From: a phage | Length of the DNA stretch: 64,000 nt | Sequence record: PQ724393.1 | Reading direction: 5' to 3' (one strand) | Part shown: one piece after another, positions 3,604 to 25,747 of the stretch | Layout of the letters: each line of letters starts with the position of its first letter | Position numbering within the stretch: position 1 is the first letter of the stretch | Position numbers and translations under genes: made by a program | Notes under the pieces: generated by a model | Told to the model about the DNA's origin: nothing | Database searches by the model: none | The model's input: the letters and a program-made list of their open reading frames with translations, nothing else

Positions 3604-4584
3604 TTATTTCAGAAGTGTAACTTCAGCGATTTCGCTCCAGTCATTTTTATCGGTGGCAATGAAGTCCGCCAGATAAAGAGCCGTACGTAATGATACGTTA
3701 CGAAGACGAGATACATTGGCCTTCATCCAGGACAGTGCTTGATAAGTCTCAGCATCAGTCAGACCTCGATTTTGCAACATATCAGTGGAAAGGATAACGT
3801 CTTCAACACGAACCATAATCTCTTCGTTAGAGTGAACTCCGAGGTCTAAGTAAACTGAACGAGATACTAAAGCCTGGAGGTGTGGAGCAAGTTTAGTGCC
3901 ACGTTCTAATTCACGGTCAATATCAACGTTGGTGATGAACACGATGGTGCCTTCATATTCGAATTCTTTATCGATATTTTTATCATCGAGGTAAGAACTT
4001 GAAGTGCTCCAGCACACCTTACGTTTTTCACCGGTATCCAATGCCGCTTTTAACAGGTTCAGGATATCCATATCAGAGAATACATCGACATCATCGATAA
4101 GAAGAACACTATTAGGGCCGCGGTTATTCCAAAGCTGCTCGTAAAGACCGATTCCACTAATCTTTCCGTTGATTGATTTATATTCGATAGTTTCATTTTC
4201 GTGGGCATTCTGTAATGCTTTATCCAAAGAATACGTTTTACCAATACCTGCGGCACCAGAGATGATAAGGGAACGAATTTTACCATCGATGATTCCGTTA
4301 GTCATCATGTTCATTACTTTAAAACGTTTGTTGATGCGATGCTTCATTTCTTCAGCGGATTCAGTAACCATTGCAGGAGCTTCAGCACCTTCCATTTCAA
4401 CATCACATTTGAACACCCATATACCACGTTCAACACCATCAATCTGTACGAATACCTTACCATCACCGAGGTGAGCTTCGGATTCATGAATTTTGTTAGG
4501 GAACCAGGTTTTACCTGAACTCATGAACGTACCAGAGATTTCATTACCGCGATAGATACCTTTGTTGATTTTGATAGTTAACAT
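3604..4584 (-). CDS. P-loop NTPase (Walker A GAAGIGKT, Walker B VLLIDDVD), function unknown
   Basis: start moved to internal ATG at 4584 (GGAG RBS; the upstream part of the track ORF contains the promoter element); Walker motifs about 55 aa apart, AAA+-like spacing. Confidence 0.65.
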   Translation of the reverse strand: MLTIKINKGIYRGNEISGTFMSSGKTWFPNKIHESEAHLGDGKVFVQIDGVERGIWVFKCDVEMEGAEAPAMVTESAEEMKHRINKRFKVMNMMTNGIIDGKIRSLIISGAAGIGKTYSLDKALQNAHENETIEYKSINGKISGIGLYEQLWNNRGPNSVLLIDDVDVFSDMDILNLLKAALDTGEKRKVCWSTSSSYLDDKNIDKEFEYEGTIVFITNVDIDRELERGTKLAPHLQALVSRSVYLDLGVHSNEEIMVRVEDVILSTDMLQNRGLTDAETYQALSWMKANVSRLRNVSLRTALYLADFIATDKNDWSEIAEVTLLK

Positions 4585-4622
4585 TATATTCTCCGTTTCA
4601 CTCAGTAGATTTGATAGGTCCA

Positions 4623-4650
4623 TAATAACATGCTCTACGAGGTTGTAAAC
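4623..4650 (-). promoter_or_regulatory. sigma70-like promoter (GTTTAC-N16-TATTAT on minus strand)
   Basis: degenerate copy of the repeated element upstream of the ATPase gene. Confidence 0.45.
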
Positions 4651-4668
4651 ACTTTTTTGCACTAAACC

Positions 4669-4693
4669 CAAAAAAGGACCCCGAAGGGTCCTA
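4669..4693 (-). terminator. rho-independent terminator (minus strand)
   Basis: GGACCC-CGAA-GGGTCC hairpin followed by U-run on minus-strand RNA. Confidence 0.7.
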
Positions 4694-4915
4694 AATTGCG
4701 CTCCAATAATTATGGAAGCGGATATTATTGATAGCCCAGTTAATACAACGTCTTATCTGCTTAGTCGTAGGCTTGCATACGTACTTGAAATTGATTCTTC
4801 TACCGGTTTCTCTACAAACTACTTCAAGATACCAACGACAGGTTTTATGAGGTCTTCCATATGACAGGAAAACCTTGATTTCTTCTTTAACGGTAATAAG
4901 AGTTGTGGTTGTCAA
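4691..4915 (-). CDS. small Cys-containing ORF (74 aa), uncertain
   Basis: ORF between the NTase gene and the terminator; overlaps upstream gene end; four Cys residues. Confidence 0.3.
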   Translation of the reverse strand: MTTTTLITVKEEIKVFLSYGRPHKTCRWYLEVVCRETGRRINFKYVCKPTTKQIRRCINWAINNIRFHNYWSAI

Positions 4916-5897
4916 GATACACCTCTTCGACGAACTTGTCCCAGAACTTCATGTCCACCTTCGCAGGCATACCGTTCTTAGCAGCCCAGATGGCATTGGT
5001 TTCGACTTCGTCTACAATAGCTTCAAGTTCGGCCTGCACATCTTTAAAAGCATGTAACCCCTGTTTGATTTCAAGGATAAATGGCGCAGTACGTAAAGGG
5101 TATTGAAGGTCACCAGTTTGATAGATTTCCTTCAACTGGTATCCGGCCCTATAAGCATGACTCAGAGCTTTCCAGTCAATACCTTCATTGGCTTCTGCCT
5201 TACGAGCACGTTCACCATATTCGGCGTCAAGCTTATTCAGAGATTGCTTGAGCTCGATTAATGACAAAGTAGTCTGATATTTACGTCCGAGAACAGTATA
5301 GAACGTTTGTGGGCCTGTTTTCTCATGGTTATGGAATACCCATTCACAGAATTCGTTTTCAGGGAGCCGATGTTTGATATCTTCTACCTTAGTGCGACGA
5401 AGACGGTCCGGAATTCCTTCTTGATAATCAACCCATTGTTCAGGAATCTGGTTGACTATTGCCAATACACCACGCAGAGCAGCCAGTCGAGAACCTTTAA
5501 CACCATATTTGGAAGCTTGCTTGCGGACATACCCTAAATAGGCTTTCATGTTGGTTGTATAGAACCGTGAACGGTTGTCTTGGATAAATTTCCATACGTC
5601 AGGTAAATCGGATTTGACAACCAGGTCAGCCGGTGTGTGAATCATGTCCAGGGCAACGGTTTCGCCATCGGCTGCCAGTTTAAAGAAATATTTCAGACTA
5701 TAAAGTTCATGGTCAACATCATCTTTTGTATTTTTGGTAGCCGTGTTATTCGTGTTCAGGTTTGTATGGTTCATAGCCGTACCTAACAGAATATCACGCG
5801 GATGTGGAACAAAGATTTCTTTAAAATCGATATCAGATTCCGGAGTACTTGTTCCATAAAGGTGGGAGCCAAAATATCCCTTCATAACTGTTCTCAT
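4887..5897 (-). CDS. nucleotidyltransferase-fold protein (Pol-beta-like GS-x10-DxD motif near N-terminus), function unknown
   Basis: N-terminus GYFGSHLYGTSTPESDIDF matches [GS]-x9-13-DxD NTase signature; 336 aa. Confidence 0.6.
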   Translation of the reverse strand: MRTVMKGYFGSHLYGTSTPESDIDFKEIFVPHPRDILLGTAMNHTNLNTNNTATKNTKDDVDHELYSLKYFFKLAADGETVALDMIHTPADLVVKSDLPDVWKFIQDNRSRFYTTNMKAYLGYVRKQASKYGVKGSRLAALRGVLAIVNQIPEQWVDYQEGIPDRLRRTKVEDIKHRLPENEFCEWVFHNHEKTGPQTFYTVLGRKYQTTLSLIELKQSLNKLDAEYGERARKAEANEGIDWKALSHAYRAGYQLKEIYQTGDLQYPLRTAPFILEIKQGLHAFKDVQAELEAIVDEVETNAIWAAKNGMPAKVDMKFWDKFVEEVYLDNHNSYYR

Positions 5898-6700
5898 TAT
5901 TCACCTCTTTCATAGTCTTCAATAAATTGCATAATTAAACGTTGATAGTTGGATTTGGGATATCCTAATTTACTAATATAGGTTCCGAAAGCTCCACGCT
6001 TAGGCCTATTTAATTTAACCCATAAAGAATAAAGCAAATCATAATCTTGCCAATGTTTCCCTATTCTTTGCTTTGCTTTAGAAGCATCAGATTGCCTCTT
6101 TTTAGTCTCTGGATTATTTAGAGATTTCTTAACAGCATTCGAATGCCTTTCTCTAACATCAGGGCGTTTAAATGCTTCTTTAATAGCTTTAGAAATTTTC
6201 TCTTTAACTTCAGGACGGTTTTGAGCTTCTATTTGAGCCGCCGACATTTTATCTTTTATTTCTGGTAGACTCATAGTTATAGAACGTTTATTTCTATATT
6301 CTTCAGTCTTCCATATTTCTTTCATCGTATTTGAGTGAATTTCTGAAAATTTTTCTCTAACTAATTGATACCCTCTAGAAGTTAGTTTAAGATTTCTTCC
6401 TAAAGAATCCTCGCCAAAGTTATAAAATGACCACCAGGCATAAATTAATCCTGAAGAATCAGAATGAATTCTAGCTAGAAGCCAGTGTGCTATAAAATGT
6501 TCTCTAGCTGTCAACAGAACCAAATTATTAGGTTCATCACTCCCGCCAATACATGACGGGATTATATGATGGGACTCTGTATAAAAATTTAATTTGGATT
6601 TGTCTAATCCTCTAAGTTTACCTCTTTGGATTAGACTATCATAAAGCTTGGTATAATTCATTATGGATTTGTTTTGTCCTCGAAGTGGATTACAGGACAC
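5897..6700 (-). CDS. HNH homing endonuclease with NUMOD-like DNA-binding repeats (MobD-like)
   Basis: HHIIPSCIGGSDEPNNLVLLTAREHFIAHWLL HNH motif; repeated N-x-PE-x-K-x-K-x-SKA-x-K units; track start is GTG at 6700, an internal ATG near 6661 is an alternative. Confidence 0.8.
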   Translation of the reverse strand: MSCNPLRGQNKSIMNYTKLYDSLIQRGKLRGLDKSKLNFYTESHHIIPSCIGGSDEPNNLVLLTAREHFIAHWLLARIHSDSSGLIYAWWSFYNFGEDSLGRNLKLTSRGYQLVREKFSEIHSNTMKEIWKTEEYRNKRSITMSLPEIKDKMSAAQIEAQNRPEVKEKISKAIKEAFKRPDVRERHSNAVKKSLNNPETKKRQSDASKAKQRIGKHWQDYDLLYSLWVKLNRPKRGAFGTYISKLGYPKSNYQRLIMQFIEDYERGE

Positions 6701-7119
6701 ATCTTAGATTTACGAGCTTTAATGTATTGAATAACGATATTTTCTTTAGTTTCTCGGCCTTCACGCTCAGCTTGAATACGTTGCCATTCCTTTTCTTCTC
6801 TACGGGCATCATACCATGCGTGTAAATTCATCGCACCAAATGCCAAACCGATGGATAGTGCAATAATAAGAGCTATTACAATCAACCCTAAAACAAACCC
6901 TAGACTCAACAGAACAGGAGTACTTAATACAAAGAAATGCTCTAATACACCAGCTCCTGCAACAGTTAATCCAAAAAGCGTACTACCTGCAACAACAGCA
7001 CAAGCAAAACAAGCCCAAATCATTTTCCAGAAATATGCACATAAAGAGTGTGGTCGAGAATGGCTGTCATAAAAACGGTCGTGTAATTTAACGTGCCAAG
7101 AGTTTGAATTGATAATCAT
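6661..7119 (-). CDS. membrane protein (152 aa)
   Basis: ORF with two long hydrophobic helices. Confidence 0.5.
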   Translation of the reverse strand: MIINSNSWHVKLHDRFYDSHSRPHSLCAYFWKMIWACFACAVVAGSTLFGLTVAGAGVLEHFFVLSTPVLLSLGFVLGLIVIALIIALSIGLAFGAMNLHAWYDARREEKEWQRIQAEREGRETKENIVIQYIKARKSKMCPVIHFEDKTNP

Positions 7120-7129
7120 AATATTTTCC

Positions 7130-7690
7130 TTAAGAGTTCATAGTTGGGATAACAGAGTTCAGATAAGAGACTAAAGCCTTAAGCTCGTCCTTAGTAAATA
7201 CCACTTCATTTTCACCGTCATGTCTTTGGACAATGGACAACAAATCACGACCCTGATGTTGATACACGGATAATTCGGTATCATAATCCAGTTCTTCTTC
7301 ATCACCTTCAAATGTTTCACTAGAACGAATTACAGCATCTTGTCCAGGGACTTTCCATTCAACTTCTGGCTTGCATTCTTCCTGGAAGAGTTTGAAAATA
7401 CATTTAAAGAAATTACTAGAATCGCTAATGCTTAGGCATTCCGTATCAGTTTCGATATTAAACCCGTTGTCATGGTTATAAATCTGGGCCCACATATCAT
7501 CATTAATATCAAATACACCTCTAAAACTACCATTAAGATATTCGTGTTTGTCCAAAACCTTTAAATCGTAAAGTGGTTTGATATCTTGGATAGTCAGTAC
7601 GATTTTATCGTCTTCTTGTGAAAGCACAATTGCATTATCAACTACTTCAGCGGTCAGGTCACCAAACAGCCCAGATGTTTCAATAATCAT
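7130..7690 (-). CDS. hypothetical acidic protein (186 aa)
   Basis: ORF in array. Confidence 0.55.
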   Translation of the reverse strand: MIIETSGLFGDLTAEVVDNAIVLSQEDDKIVLTIQDIKPLYDLKVLDKHEYLNGSFRGVFDINDDMWAQIYNHDNGFNIETDTECLSISDSSNFFKCIFKLFQEECKPEVEWKVPGQDAVIRSSETFEGDEEELDYDTELSVYQHQGRDLLSIVQRHDGENEVVFTKDELKALVSYLNSVIPTMNS

Positions 7691-7700
7691 TTTCCGTTCC

Positions 7701-7883
7701 TCATTTCACATTTTGTTTAATAAAATTTAACAACTCTTTAAGAGCTTCATCTTCTTCTTTAGAAAGCCTGCTGCATTCACTAGCTGGGTAATCATTGCAA
7801 AACGCAGTTTCAAATCTAGCAACTGTACCTGCATAGGCCTCGATAAGCTCTTCAAGCTTTAAATGCTTTTCTTCGGTTTTCAT
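7701..7883 (-). CDS. hypothetical small protein (60 aa)
   Basis: short ORF tightly packed in array. Confidence 0.4.
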   Translation of the reverse strand: MKTEEKHLKLEELIEAYAGTVARFETAFCNDYPASECSRLSKEEDEALKELLNFIKQNVK

Positions 7884-7886
7884 AAA

Positions 7887-8153
7887 TCACCGGTTATGTT
7901 TTAAAATACTATAAAGCTCTTCGACCTGGCTCGCATTCAGACAAATCATATCATTTTCTTGTTGGAGCGTAATTCCACCTTTTTCTTCCCAATCTTTAAC
8001 AAAGATGTCATCGTCAGATTCTTCAACATCTGCCAAGAGGACAATAATACCGTCTTCAGAATTACCACTTGGGTCGTATAACATTACAGTTTCCTCGCTA
8101 ACCATGAAAAGAATAAACCAATTAAAACAGGCCCTATAAGCATTGTTAACCAA
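7887..8153 (-). CDS. hypothetical small protein (up to 88 aa; true start probably internal)
   Basis: short ORF in array. Confidence 0.4.
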   Translation of the reverse strand: MVNNAYRACFNWFILFMVSEETVMLYDPSGNSEDGIIVLLADVEESDDDIFVKDWEEKGGITLQQENDMICLNASQVEELYSILKHNR

Positions 8154-8203
8154 GCCCAGGGTTCTAAGTAATAAATCATCTCATACTCCTGTGCCATCAG
8201 CCA

Positions 8204-8386
8204 TTATGCTTTCAACTCATTAAGATACTCAACCAATGCAGCTTTAGAATTAGCCAAATCTCGTTTACACTGCTCTATTCCGGAATATGAATAGCCTTCA
8301 CAATATTCAACGGCCAGGTCATTGGATGCGTTTTCAATGTGCTGGGCGAGTTTAAGGATTTGTTCAATCTGTTCAGTAGTTAACAT
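8204..8386 (-). CDS. hypothetical small protein (60 aa)
   Basis: short ORF in array. Confidence 0.4.
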   Translation of the reverse strand: MLTTEQIEQILKLAQHIENASNDLAVEYCEGYSYSGIEQCKRDLANSKAALVEYLNELKA

Positions 8387-8390
8387 AATA

Positions 8391-8627
8391 TCACCAGTAT
8401 TTGTTGATAGTAGAAATTAATTCTTGGGCTTGGGTGGTTTTCAGTTTACATCCACAACCCTTTAATGTGTCTTTAAGGAGCCACGGTTCCTTGAGCTCGT
8501 CTTTTTCTAGGCGAATTCTATATCCTCGATAATCGGCAAAGATACTTCGGTCGTCGAATATCTTAATCTCAAGGATACGACCGTTGATTTCATATTCTAA
8601 TGAAACCGTAGTACTTGTAAGTTTCAC
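8391..8627 (-). CDS. hypothetical small protein (78 aa)
   Basis: short ORF downstream of promoter-like element; track start is GTG. Confidence 0.45.
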   Translation of the reverse strand: MKLTSTTVSLEYEINGRILEIKIFDDRSIFADYRGYRIRLEKDELKEPWLLKDTLKGCGCKLKTTQAQELISTINKYW

Positions 8628-9478: not shown

Positions 9479-9486
9479 TATTTATA
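9479..9486 (-). promoter_or_regulatory. late promoter TATAAATA (minus strand)
   Basis: TATTTATA on plus strand upstream of rI-like gene. Confidence 0.35.
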
Positions 9487-10349: not shown

Positions 10350-10535
10350 TTATTCTGTAATACTTTCCAGATAATTTTCTAAATCGTCTGAAGCCTTATT
10401 AAGGGCTTCTAGCGCTTTATAATAGTCTTCACGGGAGTAATATTCTGTATGAAGTTCTTCGTCGTATTCGCTTTTAGCATCAACAACAGTTTCAATCATA
10501 TCCAGAATTTTATTTTTCTGTTCTTTAGTAATCAT
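10350..10535 (-). CDS. hypothetical small acidic protein (61 aa)
   Basis: short ORF; tk.x position. Confidence 0.4.
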   Translation of the reverse strand: MITKEQKNKILDMIETVVDAKSEYDEELHTEYYSREDYYKALEALNKASDDLENYLESITE

Positions 10536-10543
10536 AATATACC

Positions 10544-10729
10544 CTAAAGCGTATTCACATAAGCAATTAATTCGTTTTCTTTCTCATCAAATCTATTAGC
10601 AAATTCTTCCAGACGTTCGGCATCTATCGGGCCGTATTCATCGTAAAAAGCGTTTGCTTCGGTATGTTCATCCAAAAGCTCATGAATAAGCTCAAACAAT
10701 CTACTTTTCTGACTAATACTTAAACTCAT
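10544..10729 (-). CDS. hypothetical small acidic protein (61 aa)
   Basis: short ORF; tk.x position. Confidence 0.4.
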   Translation of the reverse strand: MSLSISQKSRLFELIHELLDEHTEANAFYDEYGPIDAERLEEFANRFDEKENELIAYVNTL

Positions 10730-10953
10730 TTAGGTTCACCATATCGCACAAATTTAGGATGTTCGCAATAACCGGAATGAAAACCTTCACCCTTATGATT
10801 AGAACATCCTTTATTAGAACAGTACCACCAGTAATCATATTCGCAATTCATTTCATCATTGCATAAAGCTGCGATTACCGGCCATTCACATTTTTCACAT
10901 TTAGCCGTTTTAAGAATTCTAGCTTGGCTCATAACCATTGCACCTTTAAGCAA
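10726..10953 (-). CDS. Cys-rich small protein (75 aa), probable zinc ribbon
   Basis: CEKCEW...CNDEMNC...CSNKGC pattern. Confidence 0.45.
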   Translation of the reverse strand: MLKGAMVMSQARILKTAKCEKCEWPVIAALCNDEMNCEYDYWWYCSNKGCSNHKGEGFHSGYCEHPKFVRYGEPK

Positions 10954-14325: not shown

Positions 14326-14474
14326 AGTGGTCTCTTAGTTGTGGGGCCATTCCTTGGCACATAATTCATCCCTTTCTGCATTTACCCATTACCGCACTTG
14401 GGCTCGACCTTATTACAGGTTGGTGGGAGTCCCTCACGGAATTGTGAGGTCCAGGTTGCTCCCATTTTTAAAGA

Positions 14475-14834
14475 TTAAAGATGGTCGAGTGCCGGATTAT
14501 GAGGCTTTTCTGCTTTAGCAGTATTTTTGTGCCAATCCGATTTAGAAACACGAATTGCATCCGCACCGTAAGAGCTCTTAAGGAGGCCCTTTTTATTGTA
14601 AACACTTATAGAAGTAAGGGTGTCACCATTCCAAGTAGCATGGACGAAGTTGGATTTAGATTTAAGTTCTTTAGCCAGGCTCTGGTTGGTAGCCATAGAA
14701 GCAAAGTCTTTACCTGTAACTTTAAAAACTTCAGATGGGTTCAGCCCTTCTTTAGCCTTAGCCAATTGTTCAGGAGACATAGCTTCGTTAATGCGCTGAG
14801 TAGATTCAGTAATAAATTGTTGGTAAGTTTTCAT
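14475..14834 (-). CDS. internal-protein-like protein with capsid targeting sequence (MKTYQQFITE)
   Basis: N-terminal decapeptide matches T4 IP capsid-targeting sequence with E at the gp21 cleavage position. Confidence 0.6.
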   Translation of the reverse strand: MKTYQQFITESTQRINEAMSPEQLAKAKEGLNPSEVFKVTGKDFASMATNQSLAKELKSKSNFVHATWNGDTLTSISVYNKKGLLKSSYGADAIRVSKSDWHKNTAKAEKPHNPALDHL

Positions 14835-15293: not shown

Positions 15294-15303
15294 TTTTAAT
15301 CTC

Positions 15304-15349
15304 CTGTAGTTGATAGGTCTATAGTATCATGTCTACAGGAGATGTAAAC
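15304..15349 (-). promoter_or_regulatory. repeated promoter-hairpin element with 11-bp stem masking the denV SD
   Basis: 46-bp identical to the regB copy; ATCTCCTGTAG / CTACAGGAGAT stem, GGAG in 3' arm. Confidence 0.55.
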
Positions 15350-15373
15350 AACTTTTATCAAGTATCGGCTTTA

Positions 15374-15970
15374 TTAATTACCACGGGCTGCATTAGCAAC
15401 GGCGTAAGCGTACTGAACATTAGCGTCTTTAAACGTACCTTTAGAGGTATCTATTTCTGCCTTAAAGCCACCTTTAGCCATAACATCAGCAAATTCTTTA
15501 CGGAAAGCCATTGCATCAAGACCTTTCCATGATGATTTGTGCTTGGCAAATTCAAGACCGGCGAAGTTGACAGCCTTAGCCAATTTATTATCAATAGTCC
15601 ATTTACCTGCTTTAGGTACAACTACCGGGCCTTTTTGTTTAGAGAACAGTTTTAAATTCCAGCGACGAAGGTCGCCGTCAGCTTTAACAAAAGCTGCGTC
15701 CAAGTTACTAGCAACAACATCCTGAATATGGCCAAATTTAAGCCCATCAGCTTCAATATTTAGGTCGTTACGCCAGCGAAGTCCTTCCCAGGCGAAAGCT
15801 TTAAAGTCAGAAGCTTTTGTAGCTAAATACCGTTCAATAGGAGCTGTTTTAGCGTCAAAACCATTTCCTGGGTTGTCAACGCCATTTCCTCGGTAGGTCC
15901 ACTCATCTTTATTAATGCCTTGGACCTTTCCTACAGAAGCTTCGGCGATAAATTCTTTATACGTTTTCAT
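15374..15970 (-). CDS. ipIII: internal protein III-like protein with capsid targeting sequence (MKTYKEFIAE)
   Basis: CTS decapeptide; 198 aa, basic; adjacent to e as ipIII is in T4. Confidence 0.65.
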   Translation of the reverse strand: MKTYKEFIAEASVGKVQGINKDEWTYRGNGVDNPGNGFDAKTAPIERYLATKASDFKAFAWEGLRWRNDLNIEADGLKFGHIQDVVASNLDAAFVKADGDLRRWNLKLFSKQKGPVVVPKAGKWTIDNKLAKAVNFAGLEFAKHKSSWKGLDAMAFRKEFADVMAKGGFKAEIDTSKGTFKDANVQYAYAVANAARGN

Positions 15971-25589: not shown

Positions 25590-25665
25590 TTGGTATCCCG
25601 CCCTGGGATCGAACCAGGACCGCAAACTTAGAAGGATCGTATGCTATCCATTACACCAGCGGGAC
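25590..25665 (-). tRNA. tRNA-Arg (anticodon UCU)
   Basis: minus strand GTCCCGCTGGTGTAATGGATAGCATACGATCCTTCTAAGTTTGCGGTCCTGGTTCGATCCCAGGGCGGGATACCA; cloverleaf foldable by eye, anticodon loop CTTCTAAG. Confidence 0.8.
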
Positions 25666-25670
25666 ATAGT

Positions 25671-25747
25671 TGGTGACCCGGACCAGATTTGAACTGGTAA
25701 CCTTTCCCTTATGAGGGGACTGCTGCTAACCATTGAGCTACAGGGCC
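25671..25747 (-). tRNA. tRNA with CAU anticodon (Ile-type as in T4, or Met)
   Basis: minus strand GGCCCTGTAGCTCAATGGTTAGCAGCAGTCCCCTCATAAGGGAAAGGTTACCAGTTCAAATCTGGTCCGGGTCACCA; anticodon loop CCTCATAAG. Confidence 0.75.

Follow-up and report, generated by a model that had tools for sequence, protein, structure and literature searches.

The best-described relatives of the gene reported here are the mob genes of bacteriophage T4. A 2010 review lists T4 mobD as a free-standing HNH gene situated between nrdC.11 and mobD.1, with its activity not determined and its target unknown (PMC2988022), and in a published classification of His-Me enzymes T4 MobA-E fall into group 1, together with PF01844, and not into the group of I-HmuI (PMC5714182). 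We analysed a stretch of 64,000 nucleotides (nt) of phage DNA (sequence record PQ724393.1; hereafter the window), whose minus strand contains, at 5897..6661, an open reading frame (ORF) of 254 amino acids (aa) with an ATG start and a TAA stop, which matches T4 MobD and PHROG 655. We consider it highly probable that this gene is mobD, a free-standing homing endonuclease gene of the HNH family belonging to the T4-type phages, intact and selectively maintained. It is an additional copy of a family that is already known and annotated, at a locus that is also known.

Among the T4 paralogues, activity has been shown for MobE and MobA. These two share with the window MobD the HNH class and the organization as free-standing, promoter-less cassettes apparently coupled to the upstream gene, and differ from it in their C-terminal regions, insertion sites and targets.

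Orthology with T4 mobD and domain architecture

The maximal ORF on the minus strand spans 5897..6700 and would encode 267 aa from an upstream GTG. The initial annotation had taken this whole span as the gene; the ORF is real and on that strand, but its start is best placed at the ATG at 6661, position 6700 marking just the upstream GTG at which the maximal ORF opens. We favour this start because the homologues all begin with MNY, because T4 MobD aligns from residue 1 of the 254-aa product, and because the GTG form would overlap the upstream gene (6661..7119) by 40 nt. The window protein begins MNYTKLYDSL, and M1, Y3 and Y7 are near-invariant in a family alignment of 92 sequences.

The MobD proteins of the window and T4 are 81% identical (204 of 252 residues, E 8e-162), and residues 1-250 match PHROG 655, 'homing endonuclease', with an E value of 1e-56; a search against NCBIfam returned no useful family. 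At the nucleotide level, identity amounts to 95.9% with phage E33, 94.4% with VR26 and 93.7% with TH40, and to ~79% with T4 and many T4-like phages, the matching records of the best relatives being annotated as mobD or homing endonuclease. In both T4T and VR26, mobD lies immediately 5' of nrdC.11 in the orientation seen in the window, and three genera, Tequatrovirus, Dhakavirus and Gaprivervirus, carry it at that locus. The window shows the same mobD-type order, with a small-gene array of the mobD.1 type upstream and the nrdC.11 homologue downstream, so that the position, likened in the initial annotation to that of mobD in T4, agrees exactly. As judged from sequence and synteny, the gene is thus a mobD orthologue and not merely mobD-like, and the earlier analogy can be read as orthology. 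For annotation, this means naming the gene mobD, a free-standing HNH homing endonuclease gene that marks a recombination-prone junction in the phage.

T4 MobD (ADJ39816.1 in T4T) resembles the window protein in its identity along the full length, in domain order, and in position and orientation upstream of nrdC.11. It differs in being 5 residues longer and in overlapping nrdC.11 by 17 nt, versus 1 nt in the window. The membrane-protein gene found in the window upstream of mobD is missing in T4 between mobD.1 and mobD (L003 2427-3263; compared loci are cited by L numbers). In mobD-less Tequatroviruses (L012, L014 and L032, 2035-2996), ~960 nt that include a membrane-protein gene occupy the place of T4 mobD, which therefore replaces DNA and is not a simple insertion. 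The MobD of VR26 (YP_009213934.1), E33 and TH40 are like that of the window in their neighbours and junctions, with TAATG at both ends and an 11-nt leader; their genomic background is unlike that of the window, and their membrane protein is ~75% identical to its counterpart. The E33 record annotates a 429-nt fragment (L001 3232-3660) though the 765-nt mobD ORF is intact.

The HNH catalytic motif noticed in the initial annotation is present, and an exact alignment, run as a check for lost histidines, found them kept. The core, of the beta-beta-alpha-metal type, occupies residues 27-62 (..YTESHHIIPSCIGGSDEPNNLVLLTAREHFIAHWL..; 6476..6583, minus strand), as supported by the family alignment, an AlphaFold2 (AF2) model and profile matches in the PDB. 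Its pattern is E29-x-H31-H32-x2-P35 ... N46 ... H55 ... H59, and each of these named residues is invariant across the 92 homologues. The motif can be aligned with HNH domains in McrA and in a group II intron maturase, and the family profile matches solved HNH domains in the PDB at E values from 1e-3 to 5e-3. In the AF2 model, built on the 92-homologue family alignment, the core consists of strands 29-32 and 47-50 and helix 52-65, at a predicted local distance difference test score (pLDDT) above 94, which is a beta-beta-alpha arrangement. The catalytic His, the Asn and the metal-ligand His are in place within that fold, as H32, N46 and H55/H59.

The model as a whole (mean pLDDT 93) comprises the core, a helical linker, five helices at 120-200, each of ~15 residues, and three short helices at the C-terminus. 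The five helices (120-131, 133-147, 150-164, 167-181 and 184-200) correspond to five tandem 17-residue repeats, one helix per unit, in residues 117-200 (6062..6313, minus strand), with the consensus P-E-v-K-e-K-x-S-x-A-x-K. These units are real and align with the NUMOD3 motifs of homologues, in line with the NUMOD repeats of the initial annotation; the Pfam NUMOD3 model itself fails on them, as detailed below. NUMOD3 is carried by 45 of the 92 family members. One homologue, P0006, is 39% identical to the window protein over 99% of its length and has NUMOD3 at 2e-13, with motifs that align onto the window repeats; pairwise and multiple alignments alike make the canonical NUMOD3 motifs of homologues coincide with these repeats, and the window helices occupy the NUMOD3-homologous position, between nuclease and C-terminal domain. 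A profile built as a hidden Markov model (HMM) from the window repeats did not recover the canonical NUMOD3 motifs in homologues. Because both the NUMOD3 model and this HMM fail, we call the repeats NUMOD3-derived by position: presumably they are degenerate NUMOD3-type units with a DNA-binding role, and not members of Pfam NUMOD3. The last 54 residues (201-254; 5900..6061, minus strand) form the three-helix domain, presumed to be a helix-turn-helix DNA-binding module.

Among predicted viral structures, the neighbours of the model are Mob-type endonucleases of phages, including T4 MobB at E 4e-9. The structure of I-HmuI (PDB 1U3E), the intron-encoded nicking enzyme of Bacillus phage SPO1, combines an HNH core with extended helical elements that track the DNA and a C-terminal helix-turn-helix. 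Going by that general picture of the structure, the overall logic of the window MobD would be similar. The two differ in that I-HmuI is intron-encoded, mobD being free-standing, and belongs to another His-Me subgroup (HNH_3/zf-His_Me_endon, group 2): the window MobD gave no match to PF13392 or PF05551 at E <= 1, and I-HmuI was absent from the matches in PDB sequence and fold searches with it.

All five orthologues examined are intact, with neither frameshifts nor stops. Their ten pairwise comparisons (Nei-Gojobori) all gave ratios of nonsynonymous to synonymous divergence (dN/dS) of 0.02-0.09; in the window-T4 pair, each of four segments of mobD gave 0.04-0.10, the HNH segment standing at 0.05. 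For the same two phages the overall ratio (omega) is 0.07 in mobD vs 0.05 in nrdC.11. mobD is hence selectively maintained under purifying selection, and the low dN/dS together with the intact ORFs argue against a decaying relic.

Presence, absence and recent movement of mobD

A megablast search with positions 4500-8500 identified the window as coming from a Dhakavirus-like, T4-type coliphage, the closest record being fDHCT2 (97.8% identity over 81% of the query); across 33 kb, window and fDHCT2 are 99.25% identical. What fDHCT2 lacks here is exactly this gene: window positions 5902-6672 are unmatched, a net difference of 773 nt. All mobD-less relatives share one identical empty junction, ..AAAGAATGAGAAC.. 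/ ...GAGRAYAAAGAATGAGAAC... The comparison with related phages lacking the ORF, which had been suggested in the initial annotation, thus reveals a precise presence/absence polymorphism of 773 nt. Among GenBank phages, only E33, VR26 and TH40 have this type of mobD. Just 4 of 166 mobD-matching records exceed 90% identity, against 297 records that match the 4 kb around the gene at >=80% identity.

The exact MobD protein of the window is also encoded on metagenome contigs. In the metagenome phage L038 (a 165-kb scaffold), mobD is 99.9% identical to that of the window, against 88-96% in the upstream flank and 79-98% in the downstream one. The unit shared laterally consists of mobD with 16 nt of upstream sequence and nt 1-35 of nrdC.11 (5863..6677, minus strand; -16..+798 relative to the mobD ATG). 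It has a single mismatch in 815 nt against L038 and L040; beyond it identity drops to 79-96%, and mismatches become dense just past both of its ends. Since this near-identical tract sits in divergent flanks, it is direct evidence that the mobD cassette moved recently, by recombination, between distinct genomes.

Between the window and T4, mobD is 79% identical at the nucleotide level, and nrdC.10 and nrdC.11 are 72-73% identical. Among the local genes, mobD has also diverged least at synonymous sites, with a proportion of synonymous differences (pS) of 0.64 vs 0.68-0.80; as such sites are close to saturation, this contrast is only a weak pointer. Over the first ~500 nt of nrdC.11 (window 5401-5897) there are 52 differences from fDHCT2, the adjoining 3 kb showing 0-7 per 200 nt. 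We rejected the explanation of this patch as a single co-conversion tract, since a finer comparison resolved it into a mosaic of short segments from several sources.

The locus had also been described as an insertion hot spot. The slot 5' of nrdC.11 is indeed variable across T4-like genera: in L015-L027 and L034, unrelated genes whose function is unknown (PHROGs 10164, 7981, 12852 and 3576) fill the space between the membrane-protein gene and nrdC.11, over the 400-1200 nt preceding the latter. None of those genes is a recognisable endonuclease gene or bears an endonuclease signature, so that the description as a hot spot is borne out only in part, and not visibly for endonucleases. In one Tequatrovirus contig (L013 2817-3017), a MobD.3-like ORF runs into nrdC.11 with the 17-nt overlap of T4 type and with nt 1-32 of nrdC.11 of T4 type; by the look of it, a genome that once bore mobD has here lost the stretch from mobD.3 up to the 3' end of mobD. 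The fDHCT2 record annotates nrdC.11 from its second ATG (L002 1888-2886), as 999 nt instead of 1011, and the ATGA overlap with the upstream gene is therefore hidden.

A candidate target and competing explanations

We propose the following course of events for mobD. The protein joins an N-terminal nuclease core (His32, Asn46, His55/59), through a helical linker, to the five NUMOD3-derived helices and the C-terminal three-helix domain, the repeats and the last domain being the parts presumed to read the sequence. The gene would have neither a promoter nor a ribosome-binding site of its own and would be embedded in an early/middle transcription unit, with its start overlapping the upstream stop and its last codons apparently supplying the ribosome-binding site of nrdC.11. 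With such a start and such a site provided to nrdC.11, mobD would ride on host expression without polar damage. In a mixed infection, MobD may nick or cut a mobD-less allele near the empty site, by analogy with T4 MobE and MobA, and recombinational repair from the mobD-bearing genome would then copy mobD in, along with a short flank. The enzymatic activity, whether as a nick or as a double-strand cut, and the target are thus putative.

At nt 19-34 of nrdC.11, the majority of mobD-less phages carry GGCTAC-TTCG-GTAGCC, an inverted repeat in the 5' coding region (L002, L005, L007, L019 and L026 are examples). The corresponding hairpin has a perfect 6-bp stem and a UUCG loop, as C(UUCG)G, with a folding energy of -10.1 kcal/mol (z -4.3; reached by 0 of 200 shuffles). 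Of the 25 mobD-less alleles examined, 16 have a fully paired stem. Six of these 16 (L017, L019, L021, L022, L026 and L027) belong to other genera, where the NrdC.11 protein is 68-70% identical to that of the window; there, the hairpin nucleotides are identical while the neighbouring third codon positions are scrambled. The window version, GGATATTTTGGCTCCC (5864..5879, minus strand), would mark the candidate target position of MobD and is presumed to be an immune copy.

The hairpin is missing from all seven mobD-bearing alleles, T4 included, and mobD and hairpin were never seen together. Between the mobD-bearing form of Dhakavirus and Gaprivervirus and the hairpin form, 7 of 15 positions differ, all of them synonymously, including a switch of a serine codon from AGC to TCC. 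T4 differs from three mobD-less Tequatroviruses by 7 changes within nt 9-21 of nrdC.11, followed by one in the next 92 nt. A perfect association of the hairpin-less form with mobD, based on 6 vs 9 alleles, was withdrawn after a BLAST search with the junction and the retrieval of three loci. Public genomes contain three classes of allele, namely empty with the hairpin, empty without it, and mobD without it.

Tentatively, the target of MobD may be GGCTAC-TTCG-GTAGCC, the inverted repeat described above for nrdC.11 (nt 19-34), with seven synonymous changes, which also destroy the hairpin, allowing mobD-bearing genomes and a minority of empty ones to escape, as would suit a homing cycle; our best guess for the target is either this repeat or the empty junction itself. 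If the former were true, the endonuclease would exploit a site constrained three times over, by the protein (a G-S of the nucleotidyltransferase), by RNA structure and by gene overlap. The allele classes, together with the sharply bounded recent cassette, offer a route to assigning the MobD target. Speaking against escape from cleavage, the hairpin-less form occurs with an empty site in MX01 (L043), SP18 (L044) and TH22 (L045), and phages 212, P896 and TH15 are also empty and hairpin-less, as judged by BLAST identity. We regard MX01, SP18 and TH22 as candidate 'resistant empty' alleles.

The same empty sites suit a different explanation, to which we give an even chance: hairpin loss may be unrelated to cleavage immunity, either because the hairpin is an RNA element for coupled translation of the membrane-protein gene and nrdC.11 in empty alleles, which the Shine-Dalgarno (SD) sequence in mobD makes redundant, or through mere linkage of mobD to a hairpin-less haplotype into which it first inserted. 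Hairpin-less sequences of a similar kind occur natively in other genera (L020, L023 and L024), and the hairpin-less block, no more than 35 nt from mobD, would be very tightly linked to it. In T4 mRNAs, moreover, C(UUCG)G hairpins are reportedly a known feature, said to have been described by Tuerk et al. in 1988. Such an unrelated loss is harder to reconcile with the absence of any allele having both mobD and the hairpin (0 of 7), with haplotypes that differ at 7 of 15 positions in a wholly synonymous manner, serine codon-family switch included, and with the separate cluster of T4 (7 changes at nt 9-21); resistant empty alleles are themselves an expected product of homing cycles.

Several results weigh against an active, mobile HNH endonuclease with NUMOD3-type repeats. 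The window sequence missed the threshold of Pfam HNH PF01844 (17.8 bits as a whole and 19.6 for the N-terminal 109 aa, against 21.4 needed), which for so short and divergent a motif is a narrow miss; 45 of the 92 family members have PF01844 at E <= 0.001. Pfam NUMOD3 (PF07460) scored 7.7 bits (E 4.6) on the isolated repeat region, against a threshold of 20.4, and searches of solved structures with the whole model gave no significant match. MobD activity is reported nowhere, and our literature search found no later experimental work on MobD. The region is also mosaic in general, and other patches divergent from fDHCT2 lie far from any endonuclease gene: 401-600 and 2001-2200, in the nrdC.x block with no recognisable endonuclease gene nearby, hold 29 and 48 mismatches per 200 nt, respectively. 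As similar patches occur elsewhere in the window, mosaicism beside mobD is weak evidence alone.

Could MobD be a catalytically dead relic, or purely a DNA-binding protein? The Pfam HNH score below threshold, the lack of the classical zinc-binding cysteines of HNH domains (seen in the alignments to McrA and the maturase) and the 'not determined' entry for T4 MobD activity (PMC2988022) all point that way, yet no catalytic or metal-binding position varies among the 92 homologues, dN/dS of the HNH segment is 0.05 and the five orthologues have no frameshift or stop, so we give this idea very little credence. Nor do we think it at all likely that mobD is an old, vertically inherited resident of T4-type phages, lost many times and no longer mobile. 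The shared locus in Tequatrovirus, Dhakavirus and Gaprivervirus would fit, as would a divergence from T4 mobD (79% nt identity) of the same order as that of the neighbours (72-73%). However, all mobD-less alleles have one exact empty junction with an ATGA overlap, which repeated independent deletions would not regenerate; the 99.9% identical cassette, with its sharp tract ends, lies in backgrounds with flanks that differ by 5-20%; and, this gene apart, the window shares ~99% identity with a phage that lacks it. Rather unlikely, in our view, is that MobD is active and kept for a benefit to the phage, such as the exclusion of markers of co-infecting competitors or another domesticated nuclease role, with spread as a by-product. 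Purifying selection on mobD does resemble that on a cellular-type neighbour (omega of 0.07, and 0.05 in nrdC.11), the review ties T4 endonucleases to the exclusion of T2 markers (PMC2988022), and the provision of a ribosome-binding site, and perhaps a middle promoter, to nrdC.11 would favour retention. Against such a benefit, mobD is rare in its own clade, with three GenBank phages, and the nrdC.11-mobD.3 block is dispensable in T4, where it can be deleted (PMC9825161). A benefit of this kind and homing are compatible and not mutually exclusive.

Junctions, expression signals and other features of the window

mobD stands free between two ORFs, as the initial annotation had it, and overlaps each by one base through a TAATG: at 6659..6663 (minus strand), where the membrane-protein gene stops and mobD starts, and at 5895..5899 (minus strand), where mobD stops and nrdC.11 starts. 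No SD sequence occurs within 10 nt upstream of mobD, and RNA folding around its start showed no significant structure (z -0.85). Coupled translation has been proposed for T4 nrdA/mobE, whose overlap is UAAUGA (PMC2988022). Because the TAATG overlap resembles that junction, it suggests by analogy that translation of mobD is coupled to that of the membrane-protein gene. The last codons of mobD contain the SD sequence for nrdC.11, AGAGGTGA (5901..5908, minus strand), 3 nt before its ATG. This sequence is missing from mobD-less alleles, in which the two genes overlap directly, an ATGA holding both the nrdC.11 start and the stop of the membrane-protein gene. In mobD-bearing alleles, the alignment shows that the membrane protein gains a C-terminal T-N-P from the 11-nt mobD leader.

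Within mobD, ~115 nt upstream of nrdC.11, a candidate middle promoter of the MotA type (TGCTTTA-12 nt-TAAATT; 6012..6036, minus strand) was recognised by consensus match only. The pattern has 9 matches in the window vs 3.5 expected, and this candidate is kept in four alleles of Dhakavirus and Gaprivervirus and not in T4. No T4 late promoter (TATAAATA) was found near mobD, the nearest minus-strand match lying at 9479-9486. The transcription unit that holds mobD is likely bounded at one end by a terminator-like hairpin and the sigma-70-like promoter that comes after it (~8720-8656), and at the other by a second terminator-like hairpin (4692-4675).

The upstream neighbour (6661..7119, minus strand) encodes the 152-aa membrane protein, which matches PHROG 944 at 2e-56, and further upstream lies MobD.1, with T4_y05I domains. 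The downstream neighbour, nrdC.11 (4887..5897, minus strand), encodes a nucleotidyltransferase of 336 aa (Pfam RlaP at 7e-11; PHROG 388). A simple motif screen, covering all ORFs of >=80 aa in positions 1-64000 of the window, revealed no further endonuclease gene of the Mob-type HNH or GIY-YIG class.

Elsewhere, window segments 10353-10544, 10730-10927, 14424-14804 and 15297-15359 have no counterpart in fDHCT2. The ORF at 14475..14834 begins MKTYQQFITES, resembling the N-terminus of the ORF at 15374..15970 (MKTYKEFIAEAS), which sits where fDHCT2 annotates internal protein III; this arrangement suggests that an internal-protein gene has been swapped. The window has only two tRNA genes, Arg-TCT and Met-CAT (25591-25747, minus strand), as annotated in fDHCT2.

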